Assembly (NCBI GenBank): GCA_964500655.1
Contig: CAZCPP010000001.1
Location: 1-48,999 of the forward strand
Length of the DNA stretch: 48,999 nucleotides
Direction: 5' to 3'
Source: an uncultured Anaerolineaceae bacterium
Lineage (GTDB): Bacteria > Chloroflexota > Anaerolineae > Anaerolineales > Villigracilaceae
Both the position numbers and the translations under genes were made by a program. A model generated the notes under the pieces. It did not search any database. It was not told where the DNA came from and was given only the letters and a program-made list of their open reading frames with translations. Below, piece by piece: positions 17,951 through 46,188 of the stretch (positions are counted from its first letter, which is position 1; every line of letters starts with the position of its first letter).

Positions 17951-19120
17951 TCACTCCCACCAGGCTTGTGATTGATTATTCATTCGCAAATCTTCGAGCC
18001 GCAATTGCCGCAACATTTCAAAGCGGGGTTTCATTTCAACCAGGGAGTCACCGCCCAATTTCTCAATCAGCGCATCTGCCAACACAAAGGCAGTCATGGC
18101 CTCGAGAATGGGTATTGCTCGGGGCACAGGGCAAAAATCAGAGCGCTCATATATGGTTGGAGTTTCTTTTCCGCTGGCAAGATCAACCGTTTGTTGGGGA
18201 GTGAGAGTAGTTGCGATTGGTTTCATGGCCACCCGAATAATGATCGGTTGCCCGTTAGAAATACCACCTTCGATGCCACCTGCACGATTTGTCGGCCGGG
18301 TTAACCTATCTCCATCAAGTTTGATAGCATCATGCGCCCGAGTTCCGGGTAAATTAGTATTCTCGAATGCGGTACCAATTTCAACACCCTTCATTGCCTG
18401 CACGCTCAATATAGCTTTCGCTAACCGTGCTTCGAGGCGACTGTCCCATTGCTGGAAAGAACCAAGCCCGACCGGCACATGCAGTGCGACAATTTCAATG
18501 ATGCCACCGAGTGTATCTTTCCCGTGGATGGTTTCCTCTATGTGTGCCCGCATCTTTTCAGTTGCAACTGGATCTGGGCAACGGACATCATTCTCCTCTG
18601 CCGCCTCGAATCGAGCCTGGTAACTGCTGCTCTCAAATTCAGATATCACCTCACCGACAACAAGTACATACCCGCCAATCATGATTCCGAACTGCGATAA
18701 AAAGTGCTTACAAACCGCGCCTATCGCCACGCGCATGGTAGTCTCACGTGCCGAAGCGCGCTCCAACGATGGACGCAGGTCGCTGTAACCATATTTGACA
18801 GCACCTGTTAAATCAGCATGCCCAGGACGTGGCGCTGTCATCGGATCAATGGCTTTGCCCTGCCATTTGGCGTGATCGGAATTTTCAACTAACATCGCGA
18901 TGGGTGCACCGGTCGTCGCGCCTGTCATTACGCCTCCCAAAATACGGACGACATCTTGCTCGATCTTCATTCGTCCGCCAGAACCATAACCCTTTTGACG
19001 GCGAGCAAGTTCGTGATCGATGATTGAGGTGCTTATGGGTAGACCTGCTGGTATGCCGTCAAGAATCGCTGTCAATGCGGGACCATGCGACTCACCAGCG
19101 GTTAAAAAACGTAAACTCAT
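17951..19120 (-). CDS. aroC: chorismate synthase
   Basis: 389-aa ORF, MSLRFLTAGESHGPAL, GRSSARETA-like ERASARETTMRV, and RSDFCPVPRA. Confidence 0.95.
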   Translation of the reverse strand: MSLRFLTAGESHGPALTAILDGIPAGLPISTSIIDHELARRQKGYGSGGRMKIEQDVVRILGGVMTGATTGAPIAMLVENSDHAKWQGKAIDPMTAPRPGHADLTGAVKYGYSDLRPSLERASARETTMRVAIGAVCKHFLSQFGIMIGGYVLVVGEVISEFESSSYQARFEAAEENDVRCPDPVATEKMRAHIEETIHGKDTLGGIIEIVALHVPVGLGSFQQWDSRLEARLAKAILSVQAMKGVEIGTAFENTNLPGTRAHDAIKLDGDRLTRPTNRAGGIEGGISNGQPIIIRVAMKPIATTLTPQQTVDLASGKETPTIYERSDFCPVPRAIPILEAMTAFVLADALIEKLGGDSLVEMKPRFEMLRQLRLEDLRMNNQSQAWWE

Positions 19121-19968
19121 GCAGCCTCCACTACAGAAAATAATGGTTCTCTAGGGACATTGCACCCTGTCCACAATTCAAATGACAACGCGGCTTGTTC
19201 GACCAGCATACCCAGCCCTGAAATCGCCTGCAACCCTGCTTCACGTGCATCCTGGACAAGTTTTGTCTCACGCGGATTGTAGACCAGATCATAAACTATT
19301 GCTCGCTTTGGGAAAGATAGCCCTGTAGGCCAGGGAGATTCATGAATATTTGGCGCCATACCCACTGGTGTTGTGTTTACAATGAGATGAAGGGAAGTAA
19401 GAAGTGATTGGATAGCCGAACGGTGAAAATCAATACGAGATAGTTGGGAACCAAAAATAGAAAGATGCTCAATTAACTCTAGTATCTGTTCAGGGCGTCG
19501 GGAAGCAATGGCAACGTTCCACCCGTCATTTACGAGTGCGTAGGCTATTGCCCGCGCCGATCCGCCGGCACCAAGTACCAATGCGTTTTTCGTCACTCCG
19601 TGTGTTGGTTGATTAGCTGCAAGAATTTTATGCAAATCAAAGAGAAACCCAGGAACATCGGTATTATCCCCAATCAATATCCCATTTTTCATAAAAATTG
19701 TATTCACTGCATCGATAGCCTGCACAGTTGGAGAAAGTTCATCAAGCAGTGGAATGACTTTTCGTTTGTAGGGAATAGTAACGTTTAGTCCAATGATTTC
19801 ACCTTTACAACCACGTGCAAGAAGAGCCTTCAAGGCTACTTGGTTATCAGGATTTATTGAAAATAATGAATAGTCACCTTCCAATTCACATAGGTATAAC
19901 GCGGCATTATGGATAATCGGTGAGAGGCTGTGACCAAGAGGATAGCCAATTAGGCCTAAGTGAATCAC
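19117..19968 (-). CDS. aroE: shikimate dehydrogenase
   Basis: 283-aa ORF with LIGYPLGHSLSP, NVTIPYK and the Rossmann motif LGAGGSARA. It has 4-nt overlaps on both sides. Confidence 0.93.
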   Translation of the reverse strand: MIHLGLIGYPLGHSLSPIIHNAALYLCELEGDYSLFSINPDNQVALKALLARGCKGEIIGLNVTIPYKRKVIPLLDELSPTVQAIDAVNTIFMKNGILIGDNTDVPGFLFDLHKILAANQPTHGVTKNALVLGAGGSARAIAYALVNDGWNVAIASRRPEQILELIEHLSIFGSQLSRIDFHRSAIQSLLTSLHLIVNTTPVGMAPNIHESPWPTGLSFPKRAIVYDLVYNPRETKLVQDAREAGLQAISGLGMLVEQAALSFELWTGCNVPREPLFSVVEAA

Positions 19969-21251
19969 TGTAAAGATTCCAATTCGTTGAAATAGCTCGG
20001 GAAGGTTTTAGCGACACAACTGGGATTTTCAATGGAAATCCTAGGTACCCGCAAGCCAATCAACGAAAAAGCCATCGCCATGCGGTGGTCATTGTAAGTT
20101 TTGATCGTTGTTGGTTGAATCTTGTCGCATGGGTATATAGTCATACCATCTTCATGTTCCTCTACATGCACTCCCAGACGAGATAGTTGATTACAGATAG
20201 CTGATACGCGATCTGTCTCTTTTACGCGAGAGGATGAAATTCCGCGAATTCGAGTCGGTGTGGAAGCGAAAGGTGCGATCACCCCCAAAGTTAAAGCCGT
20301 ATCTGAGATATCGCGCATATTTATATCTACACCGCGCAATTCATTGACTGCGATGACCTCAATCGAGTTGCCATTCTCGTTAACCACGCATCCCATTTTC
20401 GCCAGTACATCCAAAAAGGCGATATCTCCTTGCCATGAAGAACGGCTTATGTTTTCCACTTGCACCCTGCCACCACAAAGCGCAGGGGCGGCGAAAAAGT
20501 ATGAGGCTGCAGAAGCATCTGATTCAACTTGGAAATCAGAAACAGGAGAATAAGAACCTGGTGTGATATTAAAGCGCTTGTAGCCATCACGTATCACATT
20601 AATACCAAATTTTTTCATTATCGCTAGCGTCATATCCACATAGGGTTTGGAATTGAGTTCGGTGCTGACTTCAATTTCTACTGGAGATTGGGCAAATGGA
20701 GCAATCATCAGCACAGCCGATAAATATTGAGAAGAAACATTTCCAGTGATTTTTGCCTTACCTCCAGGGAGACCCGCAGCAATGATTTTGATAGGTGGAC
20801 AAACTGATGCCCCCTGATTATTTACTGCCGTTATCTTGGCTCCTAACTGTTTGAGCGCAGTCACCAAATCCCCAATTGGACGTTCTCGCATACGAGCATC
20901 ACCATCCAAATAAAAGTCTCCTTCACCAATGGTGAGGAAAGCCGAAAGGAAACGAGCTGCGGTGCCTGCATTACCGATGAAAAGTTCAGCAGCATGGGCG
21001 GGGATATGCCCACCAAGGCCGGTAACGACTATTTCACATATTTTCTCATCCATGGAAATATTGAAACCGAGAGTTTGCAAAGCATTGGAAAAGTAATAAG
21101 AATCGTCAGAAAAGAGCGCATTTTGTAGACGGGTTTTTCCATCTGCGAGTGCGGAAATTAGTATTGCCCGGTTAGTCAATGACTTGGAGCCAGGTACTCT
21201 AACCTTAGCATTGAGGGGTTGCTTGATAGGTTTAATAGGCTTAATCTGCAT
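19965..21251 (-). CDS. aroA: EPSP synthase
   Basis: 428-aa ORF with VPGSKSLTNRA, GNAGTAARF and DHRMAMAF. Confidence 0.95.
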   Translation of the reverse strand: MQIKPIKPIKQPLNAKVRVPGSKSLTNRAILISALADGKTRLQNALFSDDSYYFSNALQTLGFNISMDEKICEIVVTGLGGHIPAHAAELFIGNAGTAARFLSAFLTIGEGDFYLDGDARMRERPIGDLVTALKQLGAKITAVNNQGASVCPPIKIIAAGLPGGKAKITGNVSSQYLSAVLMIAPFAQSPVEIEVSTELNSKPYVDMTLAIMKKFGINVIRDGYKRFNITPGSYSPVSDFQVESDASAASYFFAAPALCGGRVQVENISRSSWQGDIAFLDVLAKMGCVVNENGNSIEVIAVNELRGVDINMRDISDTALTLGVIAPFASTPTRIRGISSSRVKETDRVSAICNQLSRLGVHVEEHEDGMTIYPCDKIQPTTIKTYNDHRMAMAFSLIGLRVPRISIENPSCVAKTFPSYFNELESLQ

Positions 21252-21259
21252 AAAAATAA

Positions 21260-22111
21260 TTAATTGATAATGGTGTGGTGCTGCGATTGAGCTAAAGTGA
21301 AAATCGATTCTAGAGTCGGATCGTCTTTGGATGCGAGCGCTGTTTCAATTTCCGCAAGTTGTTGTTGGTATGATTTTATAGCTTTCAAGATATATTCACG
21401 ATTTGACTGAATCACTCCCAACATCATGGATGAAGGCGTAGTAGCGAGTCGGCTGACAGATCGGAAGCCAGATCCAATTAAATCGACAGCTTCATTAGGG
21501 ACGGTCAGGACGAGCGCAGATGAGACGATGAATGGAAGGTGGCTTACAAAGGCCAAGGTGTTATCATGTTCAGGTGCATCCATAAACAACGCAACTGCTC
21601 CAATTGCACAAACAAGTTGTTCTGCGGCAGAAAGTGCACGTGAAGTGGTACGTGGCAGCAGAGAGAATACGAAAGGAGCATTTTTATATAATGTATTGTC
21701 GGCGTTTATTATTGATAGCTTTTCCTTGCCACAAATGGGGTGTCCTCCGAGAACTTCGAAGCGTTCGGGCAAGGCATCCATAGCAGATAAGATTTTTGAT
21801 TTTGTCGATCCAAGATCAAGCACAATGCAAGGGTTCTGCGTCAGCGAAGGCAAGCTATGGATATAGTGCAATATTGTTGAGACTGGTGTAGCCAAGATAA
21901 TGACATCAGCTTGAGGTAGGAGTTTAGCGGGGTTAGTATCGGCCTCGTCGACAAACTTTTTTTCGAGAGCAAGCTCAAGCGTGGCAGGATGCGAGTCGAT
22001 CCCGTACAGTGCAGCACATTTTCCTTTAAGTGCCAGTGCGAGCGATCCGCCCATCAAACCTAACCCTATGATTGCAATTCGCGCATCTTGTAATTTAAAA
22101 TCAGCCTCCAT
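21260..22111 (-). CDS. tyrA: prephenate (or arogenate) dehydrogenase
   Basis: Rossmann motif IAIIGLGLMGGSLALAL and GGHPICG. Start taken at ATG 22111, 4 nt after the DAHP synthase stop; the ORF track offers a TTG at 22132. Confidence 0.88.
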   Translation of the reverse strand: MEADFKLQDARIAIIGLGLMGGSLALALKGKCAALYGIDSHPATLELALEKKFVDEADTNPAKLLPQADVIILATPVSTILHYIHSLPSLTQNPCIVLDLGSTKSKILSAMDALPERFEVLGGHPICGKEKLSIINADNTLYKNAPFVFSLLPRTTSRALSAAEQLVCAIGAVALFMDAPEHDNTLAFVSHLPFIVSSALVLTVPNEAVDLIGSGFRSVSRLATTPSSMMLGVIQSNREYILKAIKSYQQQLAEIETALASKDDPTLESIFTLAQSQHHTIIN

Positions 22112-22115
22112 TTGG

Positions 22116-23162
22116 CTACCATCCAGCCACAACTGGGTTTTTGATGGGGGCGATGCGGCGTCCCATCGCTTCAGCTATGGCTTTCACATGCTTGACCATC
22201 TCTGCGAAATTTTCTGGTTTGAGAGATTGATCGCCATCAGAAACTGCATGCGCGGGATCAGGATGAACTTCAACGATAATCCCGTCCGCGCCCGCAGCGA
22301 TTGCTGCTCGGGCGATTGCAGTTACATAATCATCATGACCTGTAGAGTGTGATGGATCCAAAATAACCGGAAGGTGTGAGAGTTTTTTGAGAACAGGAAC
22401 TGCGTTTATATCAGTCGTGTTGCGAGTAGCTTTTTCAAAAGTGCGGATCCCACGCTCGCATAACATAACCTGCTTATTGCCCCCCGCGAGAATGTATTCG
22501 GCAGACATGAGCAATTCTTCAATAGTTGCAGATAAACCGCGTTTAAGCAAAACGCTTTTGCGCGTTTCGCCAATTGCACGCAAGAGGTTAAAGTTCTGCA
22601 TGTTTCGGGCTCCTACTTGAAGAACGTCCACGTAACCAAGTATCAAATCCAGTTGAGTTTGTGACATGATCTCAACGACAATTGGCATGCCTGTTTGTTC
22701 ACGCGCTTCAGCAAGATATTCAAGACCTTTCTCACCAAGTCCTTGAAACGAATATGGTGATGTGCGCGGTTTGAACACGCCACCTCTTAAGGCATTGGCT
22801 CCCGCTTCACGGACAGCATGCGCTGTTTCTAGAATCTGAGAACGTGACTCGACTGAACAAGGTCCTGCAATTACAACAATGTCATTGCCGCCAACTTGAA
22901 AACCATCGATCGGAAAGATGGAGTTTTCAGATTGTACCTGGCGCGAGCCCAGCTTGAACGGCTGAGAAATGTGTTCAACACTCTCAACTCCATCCATATC
23001 TACGAACAAATCTACCGCCTGAGACTTTACATCACCTACCACAACGATGATAGTGGTCTCAACTTCTTGAGTGATGTGCGGTGTTAGTCCATGATCTTTT
23101 ACTGTAATGACGACTCTCTCGACCTGTTGAGGGGTGGAATCGGGTTTCATCATAATTAGCAT
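22116..23162 (-). CDS. aroF: DAHP synthase, type I-beta with N-terminal regulatory (ferredoxin/ACT-like) domain
   Basis: 348-aa ORF. The N terminus [18 protein letters not shown] resembles the Thermotoga-type regulatory domain. The catalytic barrel carries GPCSVES, LKRG and DPSHSTG. Confidence 0.92.
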
Positions 23163-23626
23163 TATATTTTCCTCCTGTGTGTGTTCAGTGACCAGGTGAC
23201 TCCAGGGGTATTTTGAGAGTTTGCCGAGATTATATTTTCCTGAATAAGATGACGATTCATGTTCGTAGTCAAGTCAGGTCGAAGATTTATAGCGTTGCGT
23301 AAATAGATATGATTAATTTCAAATTGTGTTTTATCCGTATTCCAGAGTAGCAGCACACGAATTGCGTGCGGCAGGCTGATAGGTACAGGAATCTCTTGCA
23401 TACAAATCATTGGGACAAGATGCCATCCCATCTGTCGAACTGCTTGCGGCGGGAAAGTTGAAACAAGATCATCTGTCATAGTAAACGTCACACTTGCAAT
23501 ATCTTCGGGATATAAACCAGTGTTCTCATCAATAATTACCTCAAATAGCTCACACGTGGCTTGCAGGATAAGGTCAGGTTCGTCTGCAGTAACTGTTGTC
23601 GCTCCACGAATTCCACGAATTGGCAT
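23162..23626 (-). CDS. aroH: AroH-type chorismate mutase
   Basis: Starts at the ATG at 23626 with AAGGAG 6 nt upstream. [12 protein letters not shown]...[10 protein letters not shown]...CMQE...LRPDL is colinear with Bacillus AroH. The 5' part of track ORF 23162..23785 is leader region, not coding. Confidence 0.9.
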
Positions 23627-23650
23627 CGGTTGCTCCTTGGTTGAGATAAC

Positions 23651-23683
23651 AAAAAAGAGCGAGACCGTGTGGTCTCGCTCTTT
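23651..23683 (-). terminator. intrinsic terminator / attenuator hairpin in the aroH leader
   Basis: Minus-strand RNA reads AAAGAGCGAGACC-ACAC-GGUCUCGCUCUUUUUUG: a perfect 10-bp GC-rich stem (up to 13 bp if the flanking AAA pairs with the first three U) plus U-run. It ends 24 nt before the aroH ATG. Confidence 0.85.
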
Positions 23684-23711
23684 ACGTTTACAGAAAACTC
23701 GCTCTATCTGC

Positions 23712-23789
23712 TTAAGCGTCACCAACGGCAACCGGTTTGTGGAGGCCGTAAAAATAAAACGCAAAGTAAAAGCGGAAGGAAGCAATCAT
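23712..23789 (-). CDS. Phe/Tyr-rich leader peptide (25 aa) of the aro operon attenuator
   Basis: ATG at 23789, TAA at 23714..23712. Translation MIASFRFYFAFYFYGLHKPVAVGDA, with 8 of the 10 codons 5-14 being Phe or Tyr. It lies between a promoter and the terminator at 23651..23683. Confidence 0.75.
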   Translation of the reverse strand: MIASFRFYFAFYFYGLHKPVAVGDA

Positions 23790-23799
23790 GTTGGCCGCT

Positions 23800-23828
23800 A
23801 TTCTATGCCAGACGAACACATTCGTCAA
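23800..23828 (-). promoter_or_regulatory. candidate sigma70-type promoter of the aro leader/operon
   Basis: Minus strand reads TTGACG (23828..23823), 17-nt spacer, TAGAAT (23805..23800). Only 10 nt separate the -10 element from the leader-peptide ATG. Confidence 0.6.
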
Positions 23829-23869
23829 GGGTGACGTATGTATTCATTGATACAGCCTACTATGGAAAA

Positions 23870-24637
23870 TCAGTTCAATGCGCTTCGAAACCCAGCTGCG
23901 AATTGTTTCGCCGCATCAACCGGATTATCGTTACCTCCAATTGTTTTCACACACGCAGAGCCAACAATGACTCCATCTGCCATCTCACCGACCTCTTTCG
24001 CTTGCTCCGGCGTGCTTATCCCGAATCCGACACACACCGGCACCGACGTGTGTTCTCGCACACGTGCAATCAATTCATACAGTCCTTCAGCTAATCGTTT
24101 GCGGGTACCAGTTATACCCGTTACACTCACAAGGTATATAAATCCTTTCGCTTCGCTCACAATTACTTTCATACGGCTAGCGGGGGTAGTAGGAGCCAAT
24201 ATTCGTATCAATGGCAGATCTACCGAAAGCGATTCAAATTCCTCTGCTTCTTCGGGAGGCAAATCTGGAATAATAAATCCATCTACCCCTGCATCTCGCG
24301 ATTCTTTGACAAATTCATCTAATCCATAAGATAACATCGGGTTGTAATATCCCATCAACACCAGTGGAATAGATACCTCTCGTTTACGTAATTCTGCGAT
24401 AGCCTGCAAAGATTTCTTTATCGTTACACCTTTTTCCAAAGCCACTTGCGTAGCCTGCTGGATTACAGGTCCATCTGCCAAAGGGTCGGAAAAAGACAAT
24501 CCCACCTCTATCAGATCAGCGCCATTTTCAGTCATCGCTTTGATGACATCGACTGAAGTTTCCAGGTCGGGATATCCTAATGGGTAATATGGCATAAATA
24601 TTGGTTTGTTTTTGAATGCGTTATCAATACTTTCCAT
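23870..24637 (-). CDS. trpA: tryptophan synthase alpha chain
   Basis: TrpA motifs are present (YYPLGYPD, ADLIEVGLSFSDPLADGPVIQ, GFGIS). The start is uncertain. ATG 24637 (GGAG upstream) gives 255 aa, while the track ORF extends to a TTG at 24721. Confidence 0.9.
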   Translation of the reverse strand: MESIDNAFKNKPIFMPYYPLGYPDLETSVDVIKAMTENGADLIEVGLSFSDPLADGPVIQQATQVALEKGVTIKKSLQAIAELRKREVSIPLVLMGYYNPMLSYGLDEFVKESRDAGVDGFIIPDLPPEEAEEFESLSVDLPLIRILAPTTPASRMKVIVSEAKGFIYLVSVTGITGTRKRLAEGLYELIARVREHTSVPVCVGFGISTPEQAKEVGEMADGVIVGSACVKTIGGNDNPVDAAKQFAAGFRSALN

Positions 24638-30533: not shown

Positions 30534-30572
30534 AATAAAATAAATCCCCTCCGTCCGTTGGGACGAGAGGGG
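30534..30572 (-). terminator. T-box terminator hairpin
   Basis: Minus-strand RNA reads CCCCUCUCGUCC-CAAC-GGACGGAGGGG followed by AUUUAUUUUAUU. Its 5' arm lies immediately 3' of the T-box sequence and can pair alternatively with it. Confidence 0.85.
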
Positions 30573-30857
30573 ACTCCCGTGGTGCCACCCAAGTTTAGGC
30601 TGCTTTCCCGCTACACGGGTCTTATAAAAAAATCCCTGTTGTGATGCAACAGGGATAAAAAGCCAGCTTCACTCTTTTCAGGTACGTCACATTTTTGTGG
30701 TTATACCCTTGCTCTGTAACGGGAGCACCCGTATTGGGCTAATCGTTGCCTTTCGCCCGCTCAACTCGGAGGTCCATTCGGCTTCTGCGCTTTTGCCTGG
30801 CTCACACCATTTTTGCCTGGCTCTCTGAAAATCGCTTTGAAGCCTACTCGTCCGCGT
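30541..30857 (-). promoter_or_regulatory. T-box riboswitch leader specific for tRNA-Trp, controlling trpEGDCFBA
   Basis: Stem I (30857..30764) has paired segments ACGCGGA/UCCGAGU, GGCUUC/GAAGCC and GCGAUUUU/AAAAGCGC. It also has an AGAGA bulge and a distal loop AAAAAUGGUGUGA. The Specifier loop GAA-UGG-A places the Trp codon UGG at 30776..30774. The F-box CCGUUA lies near 30720. The T-box sequence is AACUUGGGUGGCACCACGG (about 30577..30595). Confidence 0.88.
30626..30656 (-). other. Stem III-position hairpin followed by U7 inside the T-box leader (terminator-shaped)
   Basis: Minus-strand RNA reads AUCCCUGUUG-CAUCA-CAACAGGGAU then UUUUUU: a 10-bp perfect stem about 35 nt 5' of the T-box sequence. 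Confidence 0.6.
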
Positions 30858-30885
30858 CTACGTTTTTGGTAAGTTATTAGCCGCT

Positions 30886-30914
30886 ATTCTATGACAGATA
30901 AGAAAATGTGTCAA
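30886..30914 (-). promoter_or_regulatory. candidate sigma70-type promoter of the trp leader
   Basis: Minus strand reads TTGACA (30914..30909), 17-nt spacer, TAGAAT (30891..30886). The -35 hexamer contains the pheA TGA stop codon. Confidence 0.65.
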
Positions 30915-31723
30915 GCCTTAAATCGCAAATACGACCCAAGCACACGTAGCATGAGTGCATATTCGCCCAGTTGATCAAGTGCAATTTTTTCAGTTCCATC
31001 TTCCATAGCCCCGATGAAATCAATATAAAACAGGTATTCCCAGGGTTTCCCCACCAGCGGGCGCGACTCGATCTTGGTCAGGTCGATATCATGCAGGGCA
31101 AAGGCACTCAAAGCTTTATTGAGCGCTCCGGGTTGGTTTTTGAGAGTAACTACTATTGAGGTTTTGGCTTCACCTTCGGGTACCACTGGCTGCGAAGCGA
31201 TTTCCAGAAAGCGCGTGTAATTCTCCGGGTTATCCTCGATGCCCGTTTGAATTACTTGCATAGCGTATTTCTCAGCTGCCTGTTTCGAAGCAATGGCCGC
31301 TGTTATTCGTTCACCACTTGTTTTGAGCAGCCCGACGCTCCCGGCTGTATCGAAAACCGGTTCAGTTTTTACCCCCAACTTACGCAGAAATCTCGTGCAT
31401 TGACCCAGTGCCTGTGGGTGGCTGATAACGCGTGTGATCTCGGATCGTTCGATGCCTGGAAACCCGATCAGGCAGTGGCGCACGCGTAGAATATATTCGC
31501 CCACAATATGCATATTATGGTACAGCAATAAATCATAATTTTGATGGATGCTACCCGCGAGGGAATTTTCAATCGGGATCAATCCAGACTGACACTCCCC
31601 TGAAGCAACCGCATCAAAAACATCATCAAATGATTCCTTTGGTACCATCTCGACTACACCGAAATACGCGTAACCTGCTTCCTCGCTATAAGCGCCCGGT
31701 TCACCCTGGAAGGCGACTTTCAT
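30911..31723 (-). CDS. pheA: prephenate dehydratase with C-terminal ACT domain
   Basis: 270-aa ORF, MKVAFQGEPGAYSEEA, with TRFL and the ESRP motif (IESRPLVGKPWEYLFYIDF). Confidence 0.93.
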   Translation of the reverse strand: MKVAFQGEPGAYSEEAGYAYFGVVEMVPKESFDDVFDAVASGECQSGLIPIENSLAGSIHQNYDLLLYHNMHIVGEYILRVRHCLIGFPGIERSEITRVISHPQALGQCTRFLRKLGVKTEPVFDTAGSVGLLKTSGERITAAIASKQAAEKYAMQVIQTGIEDNPENYTRFLEIASQPVVPEGEAKTSIVVTLKNQPGALNKALSAFALHDIDLTKIESRPLVGKPWEYLFYIDFIGAMEDGTEKIALDQLGEYALMLRVLGSYLRFKA

Positions 31724-31725
31724 CT

Positions 31726-32940
31726 TTAGTTCCCAACCTGATTATTTGCCCAATCTAAAATCGCACGCATTCCCGCTTCCACATCCGCGTCGGAGGCAGC
31801 GATCGTCAAACGGACAAAACCTTCTCCCTGCGTTCCGAATGCCGACCCGGGGACAAGCCCTACACTTGCCTCATCCAATATTCGCTTGCAGATCTCTATA
31901 GAAGGTAAATCAAATGAGCGGAAATCGAGAAAGAAATAAAAAGCGCCTTGCGGCGATGTCACATGAATGGGTACATTTTCGTATTCACCAACAACACTCA
32001 TTACGATCTCACGGCGGCGGGCGTAAGCAGCGCGCATCTCCGCTGCGGTGGCCTGCACATTTTCATCACTCAAGGCAAAGGCGGCCGCTTTTTGTATGAA
32101 AGGGGCCACACAAGTGATGGAATTTTGCCCGGCCTTCAAGGCATTTTTGATCACCGGCTTTGGTGCAGCCAGGTAGCCAACTCGCCAACCCGTCATTGCA
32201 TAGGTTTTGGACAAGCTGTTGACTAGAATCGTTCTGTCTTTTGCGCCAAGCAATTCGCCAGCCGAAGTTGGTTTTTCACCATAAAACAAATTCCCATAAA
32301 CCTCATCACTGATCACCCACAGGTTATGTTCAGCTGCAAAATCTTGCAACTGCTGGAAGTATTCTCTTGAGGGGTACGCGCCGGTAGGGTTGGAGGGGTA
32401 ATTGAGCACGATGGCGCGGGTTTTGGGTGTCAGCGCGTCATCCCAGGCTTCTACCGGTGGAATGAAGCCATTTTCTGGGGCTGCAGGTATGCGATTCACG
32501 TTGCCCCGTAACATAACAACTATATTAGCATGCGTCGCCCAGGATGGGTAAGGGATGAGTACTTCGTCTCCGGGACTCAAAATGGACTGCATGGCAAGAT
32601 AATAAGCATGCACACCGCCATGTGTCACCAAAATCTCGGATTCAGGATCGTAACTCAAATCATTATCGCACTTCAGTCTAGTGGCGGCAGCAGATCGAAG
32701 GTCCAATAAGCCGCGGCTGGGGCCATAATGAGTTAATCCATCTTGCATGGCTTTGAAAGCCGCCTCGAGCACGGGCGGCGGAGTCGCAAAGTCTGGGTCC
32801 CCCACATGCAATGGAATGATTTGGCGTCCGTTGGTTTTAAGCGCCAGAACACGATCCGCCATTGCAACTGTGGGCGATTGACGGATTTGATCAAATTGCT
32901 GGTTCAGTTCCATTGCGTCCGCGAGGATACCATGAAACAA
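31726..32940 (-). CDS. class I pyridoxal-phosphate aminotransferase (aspartate/aromatic/prephenate type)
   Basis: 404-aa ORF with GDPDF, NYPSNPTG and the PLP-lysine motif SLSKTYAMTGWRVGY. The start is uncertain, either TTG 32940 or ATG 32913. Confidence 0.88.
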   Translation of the reverse strand: MFHGILADAMELNQQFDQIRQSPTVAMADRVLALKTNGRQIIPLHVGDPDFATPPPVLEAAFKAMQDGLTHYGPSRGLLDLRSAAATRLKCDNDLSYDPESEILVTHGGVHAYYLAMQSILSPGDEVLIPYPSWATHANIVVMLRGNVNRIPAAPENGFIPPVEAWDDALTPKTRAIVLNYPSNPTGAYPSREYFQQLQDFAAEHNLWVISDEVYGNLFYGEKPTSAGELLGAKDRTILVNSLSKTYAMTGWRVGYLAAPKPVIKNALKAGQNSITCVAPFIQKAAAFALSDENVQATAAEMRAAYARRREIVMSVVGEYENVPIHVTSPQGAFYFFLDFRSFDLPSIEICKRILDEASVGLVPGSAFGTQGEGFVRLTIAASDADVEAGMRAILDWANNQVGN

Positions 32941-32975
32941 ATAGCCCTATTTCTTGCCAAGCTCGAAACGTATTT

Positions 32976-33947
32976 TTAATTCACAGAACCGGATATAGGT
33001 TGGGACAAATCGACCGACATCTGTGTGATGTTTACATAATCCAACCAACTTTCGTACTGTGGGTATTTACCATGGATGACAGCATCGAAAGCTTCTTGTA
33101 GCGAGAGAGAGATAGGCCCGGTCTTGCCAGAACTAATCTTGCGAAAGTCTATTTCACTCAACGCAATAATTTCCGCAGCGGTACCACACACAAAAACTTC
33201 ATCGGAGGTATAGAGCATATCTCTAGTTATTGGTTGTTCGAGAACGTCATACCCACGGTCACGAGCAAGTGTGATCAAGGAATTGCGGGTAATGCCCTCC
33301 AAAATAGTGGCAACTGGCGGTGTGTAAATTTTTCCACCCCTTACCAAGAATATATTTTCGCCGGTACATTCTGCTACGTATCCTTGCGGGTCAAGCATGA
33401 TCGCTTCTTCGAAACCTAGCTTAGTTGATTCGGTCTTAGCCAGAGTACTATTAACATAATTTCCGGCGGCTTTTGATTTAGTCATCATAACGTTTACGTG
33501 ATGGCGAGTAAATGAAGATACGTTGGCACGAATACCGTTGCGTCTAGCTTCCTCGCCCAGATAATTCCCCCATTCCCAAACCGCAATACCCAACCCCGAT
33601 TTTGCGCCGATGAAATTCAACCCCATACCTCCTTCAGTCAGATAAACCAAAGGACGGATGTAACATTCAGAAAAACCATTGGCTTTCACAGTCTGCCGGA
33701 TAGCATCAATTACCTGCTCCAGTGTGTAAGGGAGTTCCGGCATATCCAATACACGCGTCGATTCTAACAAGCGTTGGGCATGTTCTTTCAATCGAAAGAC
33801 AGCCGGACCCTTGGGTGTGTCATAACAACGTATTCCCTCAAACACACCCAGGCCATAATGCATAGTGGAAGTCAAAAAATGCACAGTAGCCTTTTCAAAT
33901 TCCACCAGTTCACCATTCATCCAAATATATTTTGATTCCAATGTCAT
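32976..33947 (-). CDS. ilvE: branched-chain amino acid aminotransferase
   Basis: 323-aa ORF of fold-type IV (HYGLGVFEGIRCY, EGITR, GTAAEI). Confidence 0.92.
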   Translation of the reverse strand: MTLESKYIWMNGELVEFEKATVHFLTSTMHYGLGVFEGIRCYDTPKGPAVFRLKEHAQRLLESTRVLDMPELPYTLEQVIDAIRQTVKANGFSECYIRPLVYLTEGGMGLNFIGAKSGLGIAVWEWGNYLGEEARRNGIRANVSSFTRHHVNVMMTKSKAAGNYVNSTLAKTESTKLGFEEAIMLDPQGYVAECTGENIFLVRGGKIYTPPVATILEGITRNSLITLARDRGYDVLEQPITRDMLYTSDEVFVCGTAAEIIALSEIDFRKISSGKTGPISLSLQEAFDAVIHGKYPQYESWLDYVNITQMSVDLSQPISGSVN

Positions 33948-33968
33948 GATAATTTCTCCTTTTCAAAA

Positions 33969-35027
33969 TTACAGAAGCGCGATGATTTCATCTGCCATCT
34001 GTTTAGCACTTAATTTTCCGCCTACATCGACTGTGCGGGCACCATTTGTGATGGCCTCGTCGACAGCTTTTTCAATTGACACTGCTTCAGCTTCCAATTC
34101 CAGCGAGTGTCGCAATAACAATGCAACTGAAAGGATCGTACCAACCGGATTTGCAATCCCCAGACCGGCTATATCCGGGGCGGAACCATGGATCGGTTCA
34201 TACAACCCCAGACTTGATTCCCCTAAACTGGCCGAGGGCAACATCCCCATCGATCCCGCCAACACCGATGCTTCGTCGGTCAGGATATCACCGAACATAT
34301 TTTCGGTGACGACTACATCCATCCATGCCGGACTGGTGATCAGTCGCATCGAAGCCGTGTCCACCAACATATGTTCCAACTCTACATCTGGGTTCTCAGT
34401 GCCAACTTCATTTGCGATCTGTCTCCAAAGGCGAGAGGATTCGAGCACATTGGCTTTATCTACTGAAGTGACTTTGCCTTTGCGCCCCTTTGCCAATTTG
34501 AATGCCAATTCCAACACCCGCCTGACTTCGTAATCGTAATATTCGAGCGTGTCTACCACACGTTCGCGACCATCTTTCACATCGCGGCCTTTAGGCCAGC
34601 CAAAGTACAGGCCGCCCGTCAGTTCGCGGACAACCATAATGTCTACGTCTTCGAGCTTCTCCGCCTTGAGCGGTGACCACTCAATTAGAGCCGGATGCAC
34701 TTTGATCGGGCGTAAATTGGCAAACACGCCCAATCCCTTACGGAGGGCTAACAACCCGCGCTCAGGACGATCTTGGGCGTTGGGATCGTCCCACTTCGGA
34801 CCACCTACCGCGCCCAGCAATATTGCATCTGCAGCCTGACAATCAGCCAAGGTTTCATCAGTCAGCGAGGAGCCGTGTTCATCAATTGAGCGACCGCCCA
34901 TCAGTCGCTCAGTAAAGTTAAAGGAATGTCCGTGTTTGCTAGCAACAGTTTCCAAGACTCGGACAGCTTCGGTCACGATTTCGGGGCCGATGCCGTCACC
35001 AGAGAGTAAAACGATGTTTGCTTTCAT
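33969..35027 (-). CDS. leuB: 3-isopropylmalate dehydrogenase
   Basis: 352-aa ORF with [20 protein letters not shown] and HGSAPDIAG. Confidence 0.94.
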
Positions 35028-35049
35028 AAAATCTCCGCTTGCCCCTCTC

Positions 35050-36609
35050 CTAATGAGCTACGATCAACCCGTATTCAACTGAATCGGCTAAAGCCTGCCA
35101 ACTAGCTTCAATGATATTGGCACTGGCACCAACGGTACTCCAGCGCTTGCTGCCGTTGTGCGTATCGATCAATACGCGCGTGGTAGAGCGAGTACCGTTT
35201 TCACCATCCAAAATTCGAACTTTATAATCCGCCAAATGAAAGGAAGCCAGCTCGGGGAAAATGGGTTGAAGCGCTTTCCGTAAAGCAAGGTCCAAGGCGT
35301 TGACCGGGCCATTTCCTTCTGCAGCTGTGTGCAAGATCTCCCCATTCACTCGAATCTTGACCATGGCCTCTGCGAAAGTACCGCGCCCATCACGATGTTC
35401 TACATTGACAAAAAAATCCACTAACTCAAACGGGGGATTATATTCAGCCTGTTGGCGTTTGAGCATCATCGCCACTGAAGCCTCTGCGGCTTCAAAGGCA
35501 AAACCCTGTGCTTCAAGCTCTTTCACCTCGCCTAGTACTTCAACGACATCCGCCGTATTTTCAACTTCTACGCCGTGCTCTTCAGCCTTGCTCAGTATGT
35601 TGCCACGCCCCGAAAGATCGGAAACGACCACACGCATCTTGTTACCAACCTGTTCCGGCTCGATGTGCTGATAAGACTGGACCGAGCGCCGCATGGCCGC
35701 CACATGCACACCTCCTTTATGCGCAAAAGCAGACTTGCCAACGAAGGGCAAATGCTCGTCAGGCGTGAGGTTGGCAACCTCGGCCACAAAATGTGACAGG
35801 TCGAACAGGCGCGTAAGGTTGCCTTTAGGTAAGCAACTTTTAGCCATTTTTAGTTCGAGATCGGGAATGATCGAGCACAAATTGACGTTGCCACAGCGTT
35901 CGCCAATGCCATTGATTGTGCCCTGCACCTGAAGCGCTCCTTCGCGAACTGCGACTAAGGAGTTGGCGACAGCGCATCCGGAGTCGTTATGGGTGTGGAT
36001 TCCGAAGGGCTGTGCGATAGCAGGCTTGATATCCCGGAGGATGCCTTCCAGCTCCCAGGGCATGGTTCCGCCATTAGTATCGCATAACACAACCGTTTCA
36101 GCGCCTCCACGGATTGCAGCTTGGAGCGTTTCCAGTGCATAGGACGGGTCGGCTTTGTATCCATCGAAGAAATGTTCAGCATCGTAAATCACACGACGCC
36201 CCTGTTCGCGTAGATAAGCGACCGATTGCTCAATAATGCGTAAATTGTCTTCAAGCGTGGTCTGCAACACATCGGTGACATGCAAAATCCAGGTTTTGCC
36301 AAAGACCGTGCAAACAGGTGTGTGTGAATCAATCAGCGCCCTGATGTTGGCGTCGTCTTCAGGGATACCCTTGACCCGGCAAGTAGAGCCAAATGCCGTC
36401 ACAAGCGAGTGCTGCCAATCCATATCGCGGGCGCGCTCGAAGAACTCAACATCCTTGGGGTTCGAGCCAGGCCAGCCGCCTTCGATGAAGGCCACGCCGA
36501 TCCTATCCAGCTGCTTGGCAATGCGTAGTTTATCGTCTCCCGAAAGCGTAAAGCCTTCGGATTGTGTACCGTCTCGCAAGGTGGTGTCATAGATTTGGAT
36601 ACGGGTCAT
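35050..36609 (-). CDS. cimA: (R)-citramalate synthase (LeuA-related, CimA type)
   Basis: 519-aa [17 protein letters not shown] and [16 protein letters not shown] are typical of the citramalate synthase clade as I remember it. It is distinct from the canonical leuA in the same operon. Confidence 0.8.
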
Positions 36610-42296: not shown

Positions 42297-43988
42297 TCAG
42301 GCGGGATCCTTTTCTGGTCTGCGCAGCATCTGATCCAGTGCCGCTCCGGCCGGCACCATCGGATAGACAGCTTCCTCTTTCTCCACGCGGAATTCCAGTA
42401 AAACCGGGCCGGGCGTGCACCGTGCGAATCGGATCGCATCCTGAACCTGGTCGGGGCTGGTCACCCGCCGGGCAGGGACACCGTGCGCTTCGGCGATCTT
42501 GACGAAATCAGGACCTGTGATGTTGACTGCCGAATAACGTTTTTCGAAGAAGAATTCCTGCCACTGGCGCACCATGCCCAAAAAGTTGTTATTCATAATG
42601 GCGATCTTGACGTTTGCGCCTTCCTGAATCACGGTGGTGAGTTCCGCCTGGGTCATCTGGAAGCCGCCATCACCGACAACCGTCCAGATCTCCTCATCCG
42701 GGCGCGCAAACCAGGCACCGATAGCGGCCGGCAGACCAAAACCCATCGTCCCCGCACCACCGGAGGTAAGCCAGCGCTTGGGTTTATCCATGAAATAATA
42801 TTGCGCCGTCCACATCTGATGCTGACCGACGTCGGTAGTCACGATCGCGCCGCCCTCGGTTGCGCGCCATAGCTCGTGTACCAGGTGCGAGACGTGCAAC
42901 TTGCCGTCATCCGGCCAACTCAGGATGTCCCGGGTTTCCACATCGGCTTTCCATTCTCCGATTTGCTCTAACCAATCTTCATGTTCGTATTCATCCACCA
43001 GCGGGACCAACTCGGTCAATACCGTTTTCAAATCACCTACCAGGGGGACATCGACCTGCACAATTTTGTGAATTTCCGAGGGGTCAATGTCGATGTGAAT
43101 TTTCTTTGCACCACGCGCATAGGTGTTGAGCGTACCCGTGACACGATCATCAAAGCGCATACCAAAGGCCAGCAGCAGGTCGGCGTTCTGGATGGCCTGG
43201 TTGCAGTGCGCTTCACCGTGCATCCCCATCATGCCCAGGCTGAGTTCGTGCGAGGCCGGGAAGGCCCCTAAACCAAGCAAGGTCATCGCGACCGGGGTTT
43301 GGGTTTTGATCGCAAAATGCGCTAAAGCTTCCTCGCCTCCCGATATCAAGATCCCATGTCCGCACAAAATAACCGGACGCTGGGCCTGGGAAATCAGGTC
43401 AGCGGCTTTCTCCAGGCCAGCTTTGGGCGCATGGGTAGGGGGTTTGTATCCCGGCAACTTCACTTCTCCGGGGTAGGCAAACTCTGCCCACTCGATCTGG
43501 GCGCTCTTGCAGATGTCGATCAGGACCGGGCCTGGGCGTCCACTACGGGCGATGTAAAAGGCCTCGGTGATAACTTCAGCGATTTCATCGGCGCTGGTCA
43601 CCAGGTAGTTATGCTTGGTGATCGGCAACGTGATGCCGGTCACGTCTGTTTCCTGAAAGGCGTCTCCCCCCAGCAGGCTGGAGGCCACCTGCCCGGTGAT
43701 GCATACGATCGGGGAGGAGTCCATCATGGCTGTGATGATCCCGGTCACCAGATTGGTCGCGCCTGGGCCGGAAGTAGCCATGACCACACCCACTTTGCCA
43801 GAAGCACGCGCATAACCATCCGCCATATGAGACGCGCCCTGCTCATGCCGCACCAGTACGTGATGTACCGGGTAATTGAGCATGGCATCATAGATCGGCA
43901 TGTTGGCCCCGCCTGGGTAGCCAAAGACAACTTCCACGCCCTCGCGCGTCAGACATTCCCACAAAATCTCTGCTCCTGTCTTTTTCAT
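42297..43988 (-). CDS. ilvB: acetolactate synthase large subunit
   Basis: 563-aa ORF with ThDP enzyme motifs (GYPGGANMPIYDA, GGAGTMGFGLPAAIGA, GDGGFQM). Confidence 0.95.
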   Translation of the reverse strand: MKKTGAEILWECLTREGVEVVFGYPGGANMPIYDAMLNYPVHHVLVRHEQGASHMADGYARASGKVGVVMATSGPGATNLVTGIITAMMDSSPIVCITGQVASSLLGGDAFQETDVTGITLPITKHNYLVTSADEIAEVITEAFYIARSGRPGPVLIDICKSAQIEWAEFAYPGEVKLPGYKPPTHAPKAGLEKAADLISQAQRPVILCGHGILISGGEEALAHFAIKTQTPVAMTLLGLGAFPASHELSLGMMGMHGEAHCNQAIQNADLLLAFGMRFDDRVTGTLNTYARGAKKIHIDIDPSEIHKIVQVDVPLVGDLKTVLTELVPLVDEYEHEDWLEQIGEWKADVETRDILSWPDDGKLHVSHLVHELWRATEGGAIVTTDVGQHQMWTAQYYFMDKPKRWLTSGGAGTMGFGLPAAIGAWFARPDEEIWTVVGDGGFQMTQAELTTVIQEGANVKIAIMNNNFLGMVRQWQEFFFEKRYSAVNITGPDFVKIAEAHGVPARRVTSPDQVQDAIRFARCTPGPVLLEFRVEKEEAVYPMVPAGAALDQMLRRPEKDPA

Positions 43989-44067: not shown

Positions 44068-45741
44068 TTAATATTCAGTTGATAACACTGCACCTGTATC
44101 TGCAGAGGTCACAAAATATGAATATCGTTTGAGCCACTTGCTTTTGATCGTAGACTGGAAGGGAGGCAACTCGCTCAATCGTTGACTTAATTCCGCCTCG
44201 CTCAAGCGCACCTCGAGCCTGCGGGCCGTTAAATCGATATCGATCATGTCTCCAGCCTGGAGGGCGCCAACCGAGCCGCCAGCAGCCGCTTCCGGTGAGA
44301 CATGACCGATGCAGGCACCGCGCGTCCCGCCGCTAAAACGGCCGTCGGTGATCAGGGCCACCTTGTCGCCCAGTCCCTGCCCCATGATGGCAGAAGTCGG
44401 CGAAAGCATTTCCTGCATTCCAGGCCCACCTTTGGGCCCCTCATAGCGGATGACGACCACTTCCCCGGCCTGGACATCACCGGCTAGGATGCCGGCTAAG
44501 GCCTCATCTTGCGATTCGTAGATACGCGCCGGGCCGCTGAACTTCATCATCTCTGGACCCACGCCACCCACCTTGACGACTGCACCATCCGGCGCCAGGT
44601 TTCCAAATAAAATCGCCAGGCCACCGTGTTTCGAATGTGCGTTTTCATACCGTTGAATAACGTCTTTAGCTTGAATTTCCCGCCCTTGAATGGATTCCCC
44701 TAGCGTGCTGCCGCTGACCGTTGGACGCTCGAAGTGCAGCATGCCGCCCCCGCGTTGGATCTCGTTCAGAATGGCCGGGACACCACCCGCGCGGTGCACA
44801 TCTTCCATGTGCCATTTCCCCGCCGGCGAGACCTTGCAAATGTGCGCGACTTTATCGGCCACGGCATTGATGCGCGCGAGTGGATAATCCACCTGCGCTT
44901 CGTTAGCTAGCGCCAGCGTGTGCAGCACGGTGTTGGTCGAGCCACCCATGGCCATATCCAGCGCGAAGGCATCGTCTATCGCTTCAGCGGTGACGATGTC
45001 ACGCGGTTTGAGGTCGCGTTCCAGCAGGGTCATGATCTGCCCGGCGGCCTGCAATGCCAATGTTTCCCGTTCTTCCGTCTCCGCCAGGGCGGTGCCGTTG
45101 AAAGGCAACGCCAGGCCTAGGGCTTCCATCAGGCAGTTCATCGAATTTGCGGTGAACATACCCGAGCACGATCCGCAAGAAGGGCAGGCGAATTTCTCTA
45201 AAACGGATAGGCGTTCTGCGTCGATTTTCCCGGCTGAATAGGCGCCCACACCCTCGAAAACCGAGATCAGGTCGATGGTTTCTCCCTCGGGGGTGCGCCC
45301 GGCCGGCATCGGTCCGCCGGAGACGAAAATCGTGGGGATGTTAACTCGCATGGCGGCCAGCAACATGCCCGGGACGATCTTGTCGCAGTTGGGGATGCAA
45401 AGCATGGCGTCAAACCTGTGAGCCTCGAGCATGGTTTCCACGCAGTCAGCAATCAGTTCGCGGGAAGGAAGCGAGTACTTCATCCCCCTATGTCCCATGG
45501 CGATACCGTCATCCACGCCGATGGTGTTGAATTCGAAGGGTACCCCGCCCGCAGCGCGTACCGCGTCTTTGATCAGTTTTCCGAATTCCTGCAGGTGCAC
45601 GTGCCCGGGGACAACATCTACATACGAGTTGACGATTGCCACGAAGGGCTTGTTGAAATCTTCGTCCTGCAAGCCGGTAGCACGCAGCAAGGCACGTTGG
45701 GGGGCTTTCTCGAAACCTTTCTTGACAGTATCAGATCGCAT
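44068..45741 (-). CDS. ilvD: dihydroxy-acid dehydratase
   Basis: Start taken at ATG 45741 ([19 protein letters not shown]), giving 557 aa. It has the CDK(I/N)xPG-type motif [11 protein letters not shown] and a Cys cluster. The upstream 23 codons of the track ORF translate a repeat element. Confidence 0.94.
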
Positions 45742-45756
45742 AATTCCTATCTTCTT

Positions 45757-45796
45757 CTCCCTCTCCCTCTGGGAGAGGGAAGGGGTGAGGGTGGGG
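45757..45796. repeat. partial family A GC-rich repeat in the ilvD 5' UTR
   Basis: It contains CCCTCTCCC-TCT-GGGAGAGGG followed by AAGGGGTGAGGGTGGGG. The same core is found at 44005..44067 and 47133..47199. Confidence 0.6.
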
Positions 45797-45830
45797 TAAA
45801 AAAGAGCCACCCTTTGCCTGGGTGGCTCTC
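45797..45830 (-). terminator. intrinsic terminator of the proximal ilv attenuator
   Basis: Minus-strand RNA reads AGAGCCACCC-AGGCAAA-GGGUGGCUCU then UUUUU (10-bp stem). It begins about 23 nt after the stop of the proximal leader ORF. Confidence 0.85.
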
Positions 45831-45852
45831 ATCTTTTTGGGTATGTGCCTTT

Positions 45853-45960
45853 TTATGTGTCACTATCCCGGATTAGTGCAACCTCAAGCGCGCTCTCCTG
45901 TGTAAGCAGGAGGACGATAATCAGGATAATGACGATGTTTATGCTGTGGTACAGATGCAT
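45853..45960 (-). CDS. Ile/Leu/Val-rich leader peptide, proximal (35 aa)
   Basis: ATG at 45960 with AAGGAA 8 nt upstream. Translation MHLYHSINIVIILIIVLLLTQESALEVALIRDSDT, with 12 of the 13 codons 7-19 being Ile, Leu or Val. It is followed by the terminator at 45797..45830. Confidence 0.7.
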   Translation of the reverse strand: MHLYHSINIVIILIIVLLLTQESALEVALIRDSDT

Positions 45961-45978
45961 ATCGGGCTTCCTTGAGTA

Positions 45979-46009
45979 ACAAAAAAGCCGCCCGTGGTTG
46001 GGCGGCTTT
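45979..46009 (-). terminator. intrinsic terminator of the distal ilv attenuator
   Basis: Minus-strand RNA reads AAGCCGCCC-AACCAC-GGGCGGCUU then UUUUUG, about 25 nt after the stop of the distal leader ORF. Confidence 0.85.
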
Positions 46010-46033
46010 ACCTTTTTGCGCAGATGTGTGCGA

Positions 46034-46135: not shown

Positions 46136-46160
46136 GACTCAGTTGTACCTATTTCGCCCG

Positions 46161-46188
46161 ATTATAGGCCCTTTTGAGATTATGTCAA
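46161..46188 (-). promoter_or_regulatory. consensus sigma70-type promoter of the ilv-leu leader
   Basis: Minus strand reads TTGACA (46188..46183), 16-nt spacer, TATAAT (46166..46161). Both hexamers are perfect consensus. Confidence 0.7.

Follow-up and report, generated by a model that had tools for sequence, protein, structure and literature searches.

A probable Phe/Tyr leader-peptide attenuator with a predicted near-leaderless start upstream of the aroH-DAHP synthase operon in Anaerolineae

Most documented cases of leader-peptide attenuation come from Proteobacteria and Actinobacteria. Among the examples that concern aromatic amino acids, pheL-pheA and pheM-pheST of Escherichia coli combine a leader open reading frame (ORF), ribosome stalling and attenuation by a terminator and an antiterminator (PMC11802643; PMC3082878). 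In Corynebacterium glutamicum, the leader peptide aroR, with the residues Phe-Tyr-Phe, attenuates the aroF DAHP synthase operon and responded to Phe limitation but not to Tyr, as summarized in PMC11802643 after Neshat et al. 2014. An older survey of Actinobacteria reported no Phe/Tyr attenuators (PMC1262725). Regulatory ORFs may also stand at the very beginning of a transcript: 14 leaderless leader peptides were predicted in Deinococcus deserti (PMC4007540), and leaderless polycysteine short ORFs were described in mycobacteria (bioRxiv 10.1101/834739). Here we analyze positions 23651-23828 of a 48,999-nt stretch of DNA from an uncultured Anaerolineaceae bacterium of the phylum Chloroflexota (contig CAZCPP010000001.1), the whole of which is called the window below. 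This segment, lying between trpA and aroH, is in all likelihood a ribosome-mediated leader-peptide attenuator, which, to judge from its sequence and that of its relatives, would match expression of the operon aroH-DAHP synthase-tyrA-aroA-aroE-aroC to how much charged tRNA-Phe and tRNA-Tyr is available.

The locus resembles pheL-pheA and pheM-pheST in that an ORF with Phe codons is followed by a terminator with a predicted alternative antiterminator, and in that the gene it would control belongs to aromatic amino-acid synthesis. However, Phe and Tyr codons are mixed here (with Trp codons too in most relatives), the putative target is DAHP synthase together with the shikimate genes, chorismate mutase and tyrA instead of pheA, the leader starts 10 nt past the -10 hexamer without a Shine-Dalgarno (SD) sequence, and the host is a member of Chloroflexota, not of Gammaproteobacteria. 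An initial annotation, made from the sequence alone, had likened the peptide to the E. coli pheA leader; the likeness is functional and does not extend to homology, the Rfam model Phe_leader (RF01859) reaching 15.5 bits (E = 6.6) over 23651-23772 against a gathering score of 55. Going by its published description, aroR-aroF is the closest functional analogue, as a Phe/Tyr leader peptide before a DAHP synthase operon, although it has three regulatory codons as summarized there, while the window leader has eight aromatic ones in ten; the two systems belong to different phyla and are presumably of independent origin. With the leaderless leaders of Deinococcus and mycobacteria the locus would share a regulatory ORF at or near the transcript 5'-end, the lack of an SD, and amino-acid or tRNA-synthetase genes downstream, but the starts were mapped experimentally in those organisms, whereas the leaderless state here is deduced from a fixed 10-nt spacing, and the regulatory amino acids and target genes differ. 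T-boxes of aromatic operons have the same output, namely terminator versus antiterminator before aromatic biosynthesis genes. They sense uncharged tRNA directly and independently of translation, by means of a specifier codon and the T-box sequence, and no T-box features are found in 23651-23828: the model RF00230 has no match in 23500-23950 even at E = 10, while the same method does find a T-box at 30556-30869. At the gathering thresholds, Rfam has no match in the whole window and only one tRNA in 12 related loci, and a permissive scan of the leader region gave sub-threshold noise driven by the terminator hairpin. A literature search on leader peptides or attenuation in Chloroflexi or Anaerolinea, whose partial coverage does not prove novelty, returned nothing relevant. 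The element thus appears to be a new and widespread example of a well-known regulator class, in a phylum where the class looks undescribed.

All leader features and the operon are read on the minus strand of the window and are collected in Table 1. What the initial annotation had proposed for this segment was found in place, namely a promoter TTGACG-17 nt-TAGAAT after trpA (23828-23800), a 25-codon ORF with 5 Phe and 3 Tyr in ten codons (codons 5-14, 8 of 10 being aromatic), and a perfect intrinsic terminator about 28 nt past the ORF and 24 nt before aroH (23683-23651). In a consensus scan the promoter agrees with the consensus at 10 of 12 positions and is the top match in 2.5 kb; the same kind of scan gives the terminator 13 pairs, 7 of them G-C, and six T's. 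The distance from the leader stop codon to the terminator stem is 28 nt. The terminator hairpin alone has a free energy of -22.0 kcal/mol, and the whole window leader folds with -57.6 kcal/mol (z = -4.3 versus shuffled sequence).

Table 1. Positions of the leader element and of the operon it would control (window coordinates)
Feature	Positions	Strand	Basis or remark
-35 hexamer TTGACG	23823..23828	-	consensus scan; TTGAC almost unchanging in alignment A3
-10 hexamer TAGAAT, 17-nt spacer to -35	23800..23805	-	TAGAAT in 92/101 homologues with recognisable promoter
10-nt stretch AGCGGCCAAC, -10 to ATG	23790..23799	-	conserved; family consensus AGCGCCCAAY (A3); would contain the discriminator and the putative transcription start
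Leader ORF MIASFRFYFAFYFYGLHKPVAVGDA, 25 codons + TAA	23712..23789 (ATG 23789; TAA 23714-23712)	-	
Proposed stall site, regulatory codons 5-14 (F R F Y F A F Y F Y)	23748..23777	-	
P1 hairpin (regions 1:2a), ACGGC 23749-23745 with GCCGT 23729-23725 + short inner stem	23725..23749	-	
Region 2 GCCGTTGGTGACGCTT, putative antiterminator upstream strand	23714..23729	-	last base = first stop-codon base
P-mid hairpin in stop codon-to-terminator interval, GCAGA...TCTGT or ATAGAG...TTCTGT	23684..23711	-	would be apical part of antiterminator
Intrinsic terminator (regions 3:4), AAAGAGCGAGACC-ACAC-GGTCTCGCTCTTT	23683-23654, T-run to 23651	-	
Terminator detail	5' arm 23683-23671; loop ACAC 23670-23667; 3' arm 23666-23654; T-run 23656-23651	-	
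Putative antiterminator downstream strand	23680-23664	-	inside terminator
24-nt spacer with SD AAGGAG 23638-23633, then aroH ATG 23626-23624	23624..23650	-	
Controlled operon aroH-DAHP synthase-tyrA-aroA-aroE-aroC	17951..23626	-	NCBIfam assignments
aroH	23162-23626	-	TIGR01796 match from residue 3; start also fits alignment A2
DAHP synthase	22116-23162	-	NCBIfam
tyrA	21260-22132	-	NCBIfam
aroA	19965-21251	-	NCBIfam
aroE	19117-19968	-	NCBIfam
aroC	17951-19120	-	NCBIfam

Conservation supports this reading. Identical metagenome-assembled copies of the window contig occur in three JGI metagenomes (3300009373, 3300009127 and 3300013119), and the closest AroH relatives, with 60-75% identity, are found in metagenome-assembled genomes of Anaerolineales and other Chloroflexota. 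We compared the 80 best genome loci (best AroH match 72%, the window's own genome not included) and scanned 400 nt upstream of aroH for ORFs. At 45 loci, labelled Anaerolineales, Anaerolineae or Chloroflexota, there is an ORF about 25 codons long, in which a stretch of ten holds 4-8 aromatic residues. Its peptide consensus is MLKSxRWFAFYFYYGFRxSVAVGGA, and it ends 64-167 nt before aroH; a hairpin with a T-run follows the ORF in all 45 homologues. The codons include Trp besides Phe and Tyr in most relatives. No aromatic leader ORF was found at the loci of Trueperaceae, Planctomycetota and Bacillota or at the single locus of Ktedonobacterales, and a Caldilineaceae locus has a more divergent candidate. 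In metagenome contigs, a 19-nt region-2 pattern matched at least 120 stretches; among the 120 matches listed, 84 have the aromatic leader, 3 are cut by contig ends and 33 are chance matches. Wherever more than about 200 nt follow the leader in these listed matches, aroH lies 76-258 nt past the leader stop, and DAHP synthase is usually the next gene after it. In the homologues the gene order aroH-DAHP synthase(-tyrA-aroA) is likewise kept downstream of the leader.

A comparison of the regions upstream of aroH and DAHP synthase, which had been proposed along with the initial annotation, accordingly yields a Phe/Tyr(Trp)-rich ORF, a promoter and a terminator conserved throughout Anaerolineae, and this conserved unit before aroH bears out the earlier claim that the terminator lies inside the aro 5' leader. 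Among the 44 homologous loci aligned from genomes, only 6 have trpA upstream of the leader (7 of 45 with the window counted), so the element belongs to the aro operon and not to the end of the trp operon. The best comparator is locus L004, which has trpA, the same promoter and the leader MLASFRFYFAFYFYGLHKTVAVGDA, with an AroH only 62% identical to that of the window. Its leader ORF differs from that of the window at 5 nt, of which 3 are synonymous third-position changes and 2 are non-synonymous, and its terminator has one compensatory change from an A-U to a G-C pair. With near-identical leaders before proteins of 62% identity, the intergenic leader is more conserved than the protein after it.

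How the leader ORF varies was examined in the 31 leaders whose length is exactly 25 codons. Nearly all of them have aromatic residues at codons 7-14; Phe and Tyr interchange freely, TTT alternates with TTC and TAT with TAC, and the codon bases of the run have an invariant T in the first position, T or A in the second and T or C in the third. The ATG is kept in 30 of the 31. The last codons, 21-25 (GCC GTT GGT GGC GCT), and the TAA are almost invariant with the wobble positions included, and this freezing at wobble positions indicates that it is the RNA and not the peptide that is constrained. In three homologues (L013, L030 and L044) a one-base frameshift alters the peptide tail (…TAPNRLPLVALK) while the RNA sequence is kept; these leaders end at a TAG 4 nt past the usual TAA, TAAGTAG offering stops in two frames. 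Such a pattern is expected if the ORF evolves as a sensor that is translated and that also serves, in its 3' part, as structural RNA.

Structures were compared in A3, the alignment of 45 leader sequences. In the terminator, 8 of the 13 pairs have changed on both sides and 95.9% of the alignment cells are paired; for P1 the figures are 6 of 9 pairs and 90.4%. Taken together, 14 of 22 pairs have changed on both sides with 93.6% of cells paired, and none of 500 shuffles reaches any of these measures. P1 joins ACGGY of codons 14-15 with GCCGU of codons 21-22 and adds an inner stem across the family, and its pairs are kept in 43 of the 45 sequences when the whole leader is folded unmasked; we propose that it acts as an anti-antiterminator, that is, a 1:2-type helix, and/or as a pause hairpin. 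A P-mid hairpin of -3 kcal/mol or stronger occurs in 42 of the 45 homologues with differing stem sequences (mean z -3.4). Within its loop the window has a second copy of AGAGCGAG (23705-23698). The initial annotation was right that this duplicate exists; it is found in the window only among the 45 aligned homologues and thus stands outside the conserved design, and as an alternative arm it was rejected, being already altered in L004.

As to the antiterminator, when the alignment is truncated ahead of the terminator 3' arm, RNAalifold gives CGCUU:GAGCG together with P-mid and P1, and GG:CC as well with all rows. The pairing of 3 + 5 bp put forward earlier, GGUGACGCUUAA with the terminator 5' arm, is therefore recovered, but the pairing is longer than was stated, with about 14 bp and a nested hairpin: when the P1 5' arm is masked, single-sequence folds pair GCCGUUGGU..CGCUU with GAGCG..ACCA.ACGGU and stack these 14 or so pairs on P-mid in a predicted nested antiterminator of three helices, which in the window means 23729-23714 with 23680-23664. 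With region 1 masked in this way, all 45 sequences have region 2 folded onto region 3, on average by 13.5 pairs and with -23.0 kcal/mol, compared with a mean of -21.2 kcal/mol for the terminator alone; the fold is also found in the divergent L041, L045, L050, L053 and L059, where both strands are off consensus. Folded whole from the AUG without a mask, 44 of the 45 sequences have no antiterminator pairs, and in the ten sequences folded with the stop codon masked as by a ribosome, the terminator forms every time. In A3 the antiterminator cells are 92.6% paired, against 40-46% with slid partners. The terminator-loop bases A202, A/G205 and C206, which pair in the antiterminator, are conserved, and only position 203, a predicted bulge, varies. 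In L041 the P1 arm (AUGGC), region 2 (GCCAU) and the loop (AUGGC) have changed together. Shuffled region 2 gives a mean of 7.8 pairs and -18.4 kcal/mol.

From these features we infer the following course of events. A strong sigma-70-type promoter would start the transcript a few nucleotides before the leader AUG or at it, and a ribosome would translate the 25-codon leader. When Phe and Tyr are plentiful, the ribosome would reach the UAA and cover region 2 (GCCGUUGGUGACGCUU, ending in the stop codon) as well as the beginning of the hairpin after it, so that the terminator of 13 bp and U6 could form and RNA polymerase would halt 24 nt before aroH. When Phe or Tyr is scarce, the ribosome would stall in the Phe/Tyr run (codons 5-14) and cover the 5' arm of P1; the freed region 2 would then pair across the terminator hairpin, from its 5' arm through the loop into the start of its 3' arm, in about 14 bp stacked on P-mid, the terminator would be blocked, and transcription would proceed into the aro operon.

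Several results weigh against this account and must be set beside it. In full-length thermodynamic folds the terminator always wins, which means that the switch must be kinetic. When the RNA is folded from P1 onward without a ribosome mask, P1 coexists with a shorter antiterminator of 9 bp, and P1 alone therefore cannot explain termination by default. Since the antiterminator columns hardly vary, they show next to no covariation: only 1 pair has changed on both sides, a count that does not surpass that of shuffles. A G/C-rich region 2 reaches 8 pairs or more in 60% of trials even after shuffling. The P-mid of the window is weak (-4.1 kcal/mol, z = -0.74). Promoter-like matches, if taken singly, are not above chance, with 5 observed and 4.3 expected; chance is excluded because the whole promoter-ORF-terminator arrangement recurs in more than 120 homologous sequences. 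On balance, the conservation, the codon-like substitutions and the terminator covariation support the Phe/Tyr leader-peptide attenuator first proposed for this locus.

Three other explanations have to be weighed. The one that fares best, improbable as we judge it, is that the switch is worked by an RNA-binding protein (TRAP- or PyrR-like), by uncharged tRNA or by a small ligand, with the ORF irrelevant. It could account for the extreme conservation of the RNA from codon 14 to the terminator, which exceeds that of AroH itself, and it could appeal to the T-box of the neighbouring trp operon and to a leader that has no SD and whose translation is deduced. However, a frozen RNA is expected from the mutually overlapping helices 1:2, 2:3 and 3:4, and the leader has no T-box or other Rfam match even at E = 10. 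Moreover, the 5' half varies as codons do, with Phe and Tyr swapping; the distance from -10 to ATG is fixed, and the stop codon at the edge of region 2 is conserved too, the frameshifted variants stopping 4 nt later.

A still less probable explanation is that the product of the ORF has a function as a hydrophobic micro-protein, for instance at the membrane or in trans as peTrpL does, and that the terminator merely ends a short transcript. Trans-acting leader peptides are known, as PMC7298713 indicates, and the length and part of the sequence of the peptide are conserved (MLKSxRWF...GFRxxVAVGGA). However, the conserved C-terminus is fixed at synonymous sites, which places the constraint on the RNA, and the three frameshifted homologues exchange the peptide tail and keep the RNA. 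The aromatic run keeps its composition and not its order, the peptide has no Pfam or NCBIfam match, and the element occurs strictly with the aro operon. The peptide may still have an additional function in trans.

That the hairpin is a plain terminator of trpEGDCFBA, that the Phe/Tyr-rich ORF arose by chance in a T-rich spacer and that aroH is expressed otherwise is hardly credible, even though the element directly follows trpA (stop at 23870) with no other terminator between and the promoter-like match alone is not above chance, since ORF, promoter and terminator are kept as a unit always before aroH (45 genome loci and at least 84 metagenome contigs), mostly without trpA upstream, with codon-structured substitutions and with 24 nt between terminator and aroH in which no other promoter fits. 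As part of the attenuator, the terminator of the window probably also ends read-through transcripts of the trp operon: on transcripts coming from trpA the leader ATG would have no SD, and they would probably terminate here too. This role is secondary, because most homologues have no trpA upstream.

The start of the leader deserves separate consideration. TTGAC and TAGAAT are almost invariant in A3, while the spacer sequence between them is variable and has no evident operator-like conserved element. In 94 of 101 homologues the -10 hexamer and the ATG are separated by exactly 10 nt, and the overall range is 7-12 nt. Transcription from sigma-70 promoters usually starts about 7 nt past the -10 hexamer. 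The 5'-untranslated region (5'-UTR) of the leader would hence be about 0-4 nt long, without room for an SD; of these lengths, about 3-4 nt is more probable than 0 nt, which counts against a start exactly at the AUG. The observation in the initial annotation that 10 nt separate the -10 element from the AUG and that no SD is present thus holds family-wide, and with the spacing fixed at 10 nt the near-leaderless deduction concerns a conserved property of the family. Its further remark that such a start is unusual for attenuators is true of those of the E. coli type, but precedents exist elsewhere (PMC4007540; 10.1101/834739). Promoter, 10-nt spacing and AUG are conserved as strongly as the RNA switch. 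It is possible, though we regard it as doubtful, that these leaders form a phylum-specific, previously uncatalogued attenuator family in which (near-)leaderless initiation at a 5'-terminal AUG is part of the regulatory design.

A side observation bears on the transcript 5'-end. In 24 of the 45 homologues, the MLKS-type leaders (L005-L034 and others), the transcript would begin with UGCUUAAGUCCACC, which is complementary to GGUGGCGCUUAAGUA at the leader end. The predicted pairing with region 2 and the stop codon has 14 bp over the first ~15 nt, the AUG included, with -16 to -19 kcal/mol and z of about -3 to -4, and it might be a further anti-antiterminator that involves the start codon. For the subclade of the window such a pairing was rejected (z = +1.2 in the window, -0.5 in L004 and -1.0 in L035). 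If the near-leaderless design is real, an untranslated MLKS transcript would shut off its own antiterminator.

The genes around the element add some context. In the operon downstream, the DAHP synthase has an N-terminal ferredoxin-like domain according to the precomputed Pfam annotation of JGI. For aroH the databases disagree: the JGI call is a protein of 207 aa (P0002) from TTG 23785 (23162-23785), which spans the leader ORF and the terminator, whereas the call of NCBI/ENA has 154 aa from ATG 23626, in agreement with the SD and the family alignment, and the longer call is probably an annotation artefact. The AroH proteins of the window (154 aa) and L004 (153 aa) have a poorly conserved C-terminal extension of about 30 residues (23162-23260 in the window; aroH of L004 at 1229-1690), which the 123-aa AroH of other Anaerolineae lacks. 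In many relatives (L005-L038) the interval between terminator and aroH holds a G/C-rich palindrome, CTCACCCC..CCCCTCTCC-loop-GGAGAGGGG..GGGGTGAG, and the spacer is then 100-170 nt long. The window lacks it at aroH and has a similar element at about 45750-45795 (minus strand), just past the terminator of the second ilv leader described below; the palindrome may be a REP-like (repetitive extragenic palindromic) or otherwise recurrent element.

Upstream of the leader, NCBIfam assigns trpC, trpF, trpB and trpA. Farther upstream, a T-box leader (RF00230; 88.4 bits, E = 5e-20) lies at 30556-30869 on the minus strand before trpE (ATG 30492), with the specifier GAA-UGG-A for Trp; the default Rfam scan missed it because 88.4 bits is just under the gathering score of 93. 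A Trp T-box upstream of trpE implies that the trp operon is tRNA-sensed, next to an aro operon that would be ribosome-sensed. Within this leader, at 30632-30656 (minus strand), a perfect 10-bp hairpin ATCCCTGTTG-CATCA-CAACAGGGAT with T7 occurs in an insertion of ~59 nt before the T-box sequence proper, as a second terminator-like site. The promoters of the aro leader (23790-23807) and of the trp T-box (30875-30892), both on the minus strand, share CATAGAATAGCGGC(T/C)AA(T/C) after the -35 hexamer and the 17-nt spacer. This element may be a lineage-typical -10/discriminator or a feature common to aromatic operons. Its part TAGAATAGCG has two exact copies in the 49-kb window, in the aro leader and the trp T-box; as a shared promoter motif it was rejected, the 4 matches with one mismatch being at chance level (the same number is attained in 15 of 100 shuffles).

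Directly upstream of the trp T-box, the genes cimA/leuA-like, leuB, ilvE, an aminotransferase gene and pheA form one co-directional string at 30911-36609 (minus strand), so that pheA appears to sit at the tail of a string of branched-chain amino-acid genes and not in the operon under Phe/Tyr control. Another leader occupies 45797-46190 (minus strand), upstream of ilvD (44068-45810) and ilvB (42297-43988), with a promoter TTGACA-17-TATAAT and two tandem small ORFs rich in Ile, Leu and Val, MQTAFSTLVLSIIILVLIIKDQFVVGMAKVSVK and MHLYHSINIVIILIIVLLLTQESALEVALIRDSDT, each followed by an intrinsic terminator. From their sequence they look like tandem branched-chain leader-peptide attenuators with a normal 5'-UTR. 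One gene cluster would thus have a Trp T-box for trp and apparently tandem Ile/Leu/Val leader peptides for ilv, with ribosome-sensing and tRNA-sensing side by side.

Mechanistically the Anaerolineae leader is unsurprising, and its value lies in annotation, in RNA family definition and in the regulation of uncultured Anaerolineae. Being abundant and of clear architecture, the element could seed a new RNA family, and its recognition would improve the annotation of aroH. The fixed near-leaderless start makes it a natural test case for how leaderless initiation is coupled to transcription. The element points to regulation of the whole common aromatic pathway in the largely uncultured Anaerolineae, and, if the leaders do form the phylum-specific family considered above, one peptide carrying Trp, Phe and Tyr codons would allow the element to signal the supply of all three aromatic amino acids to the pathway they have in common.

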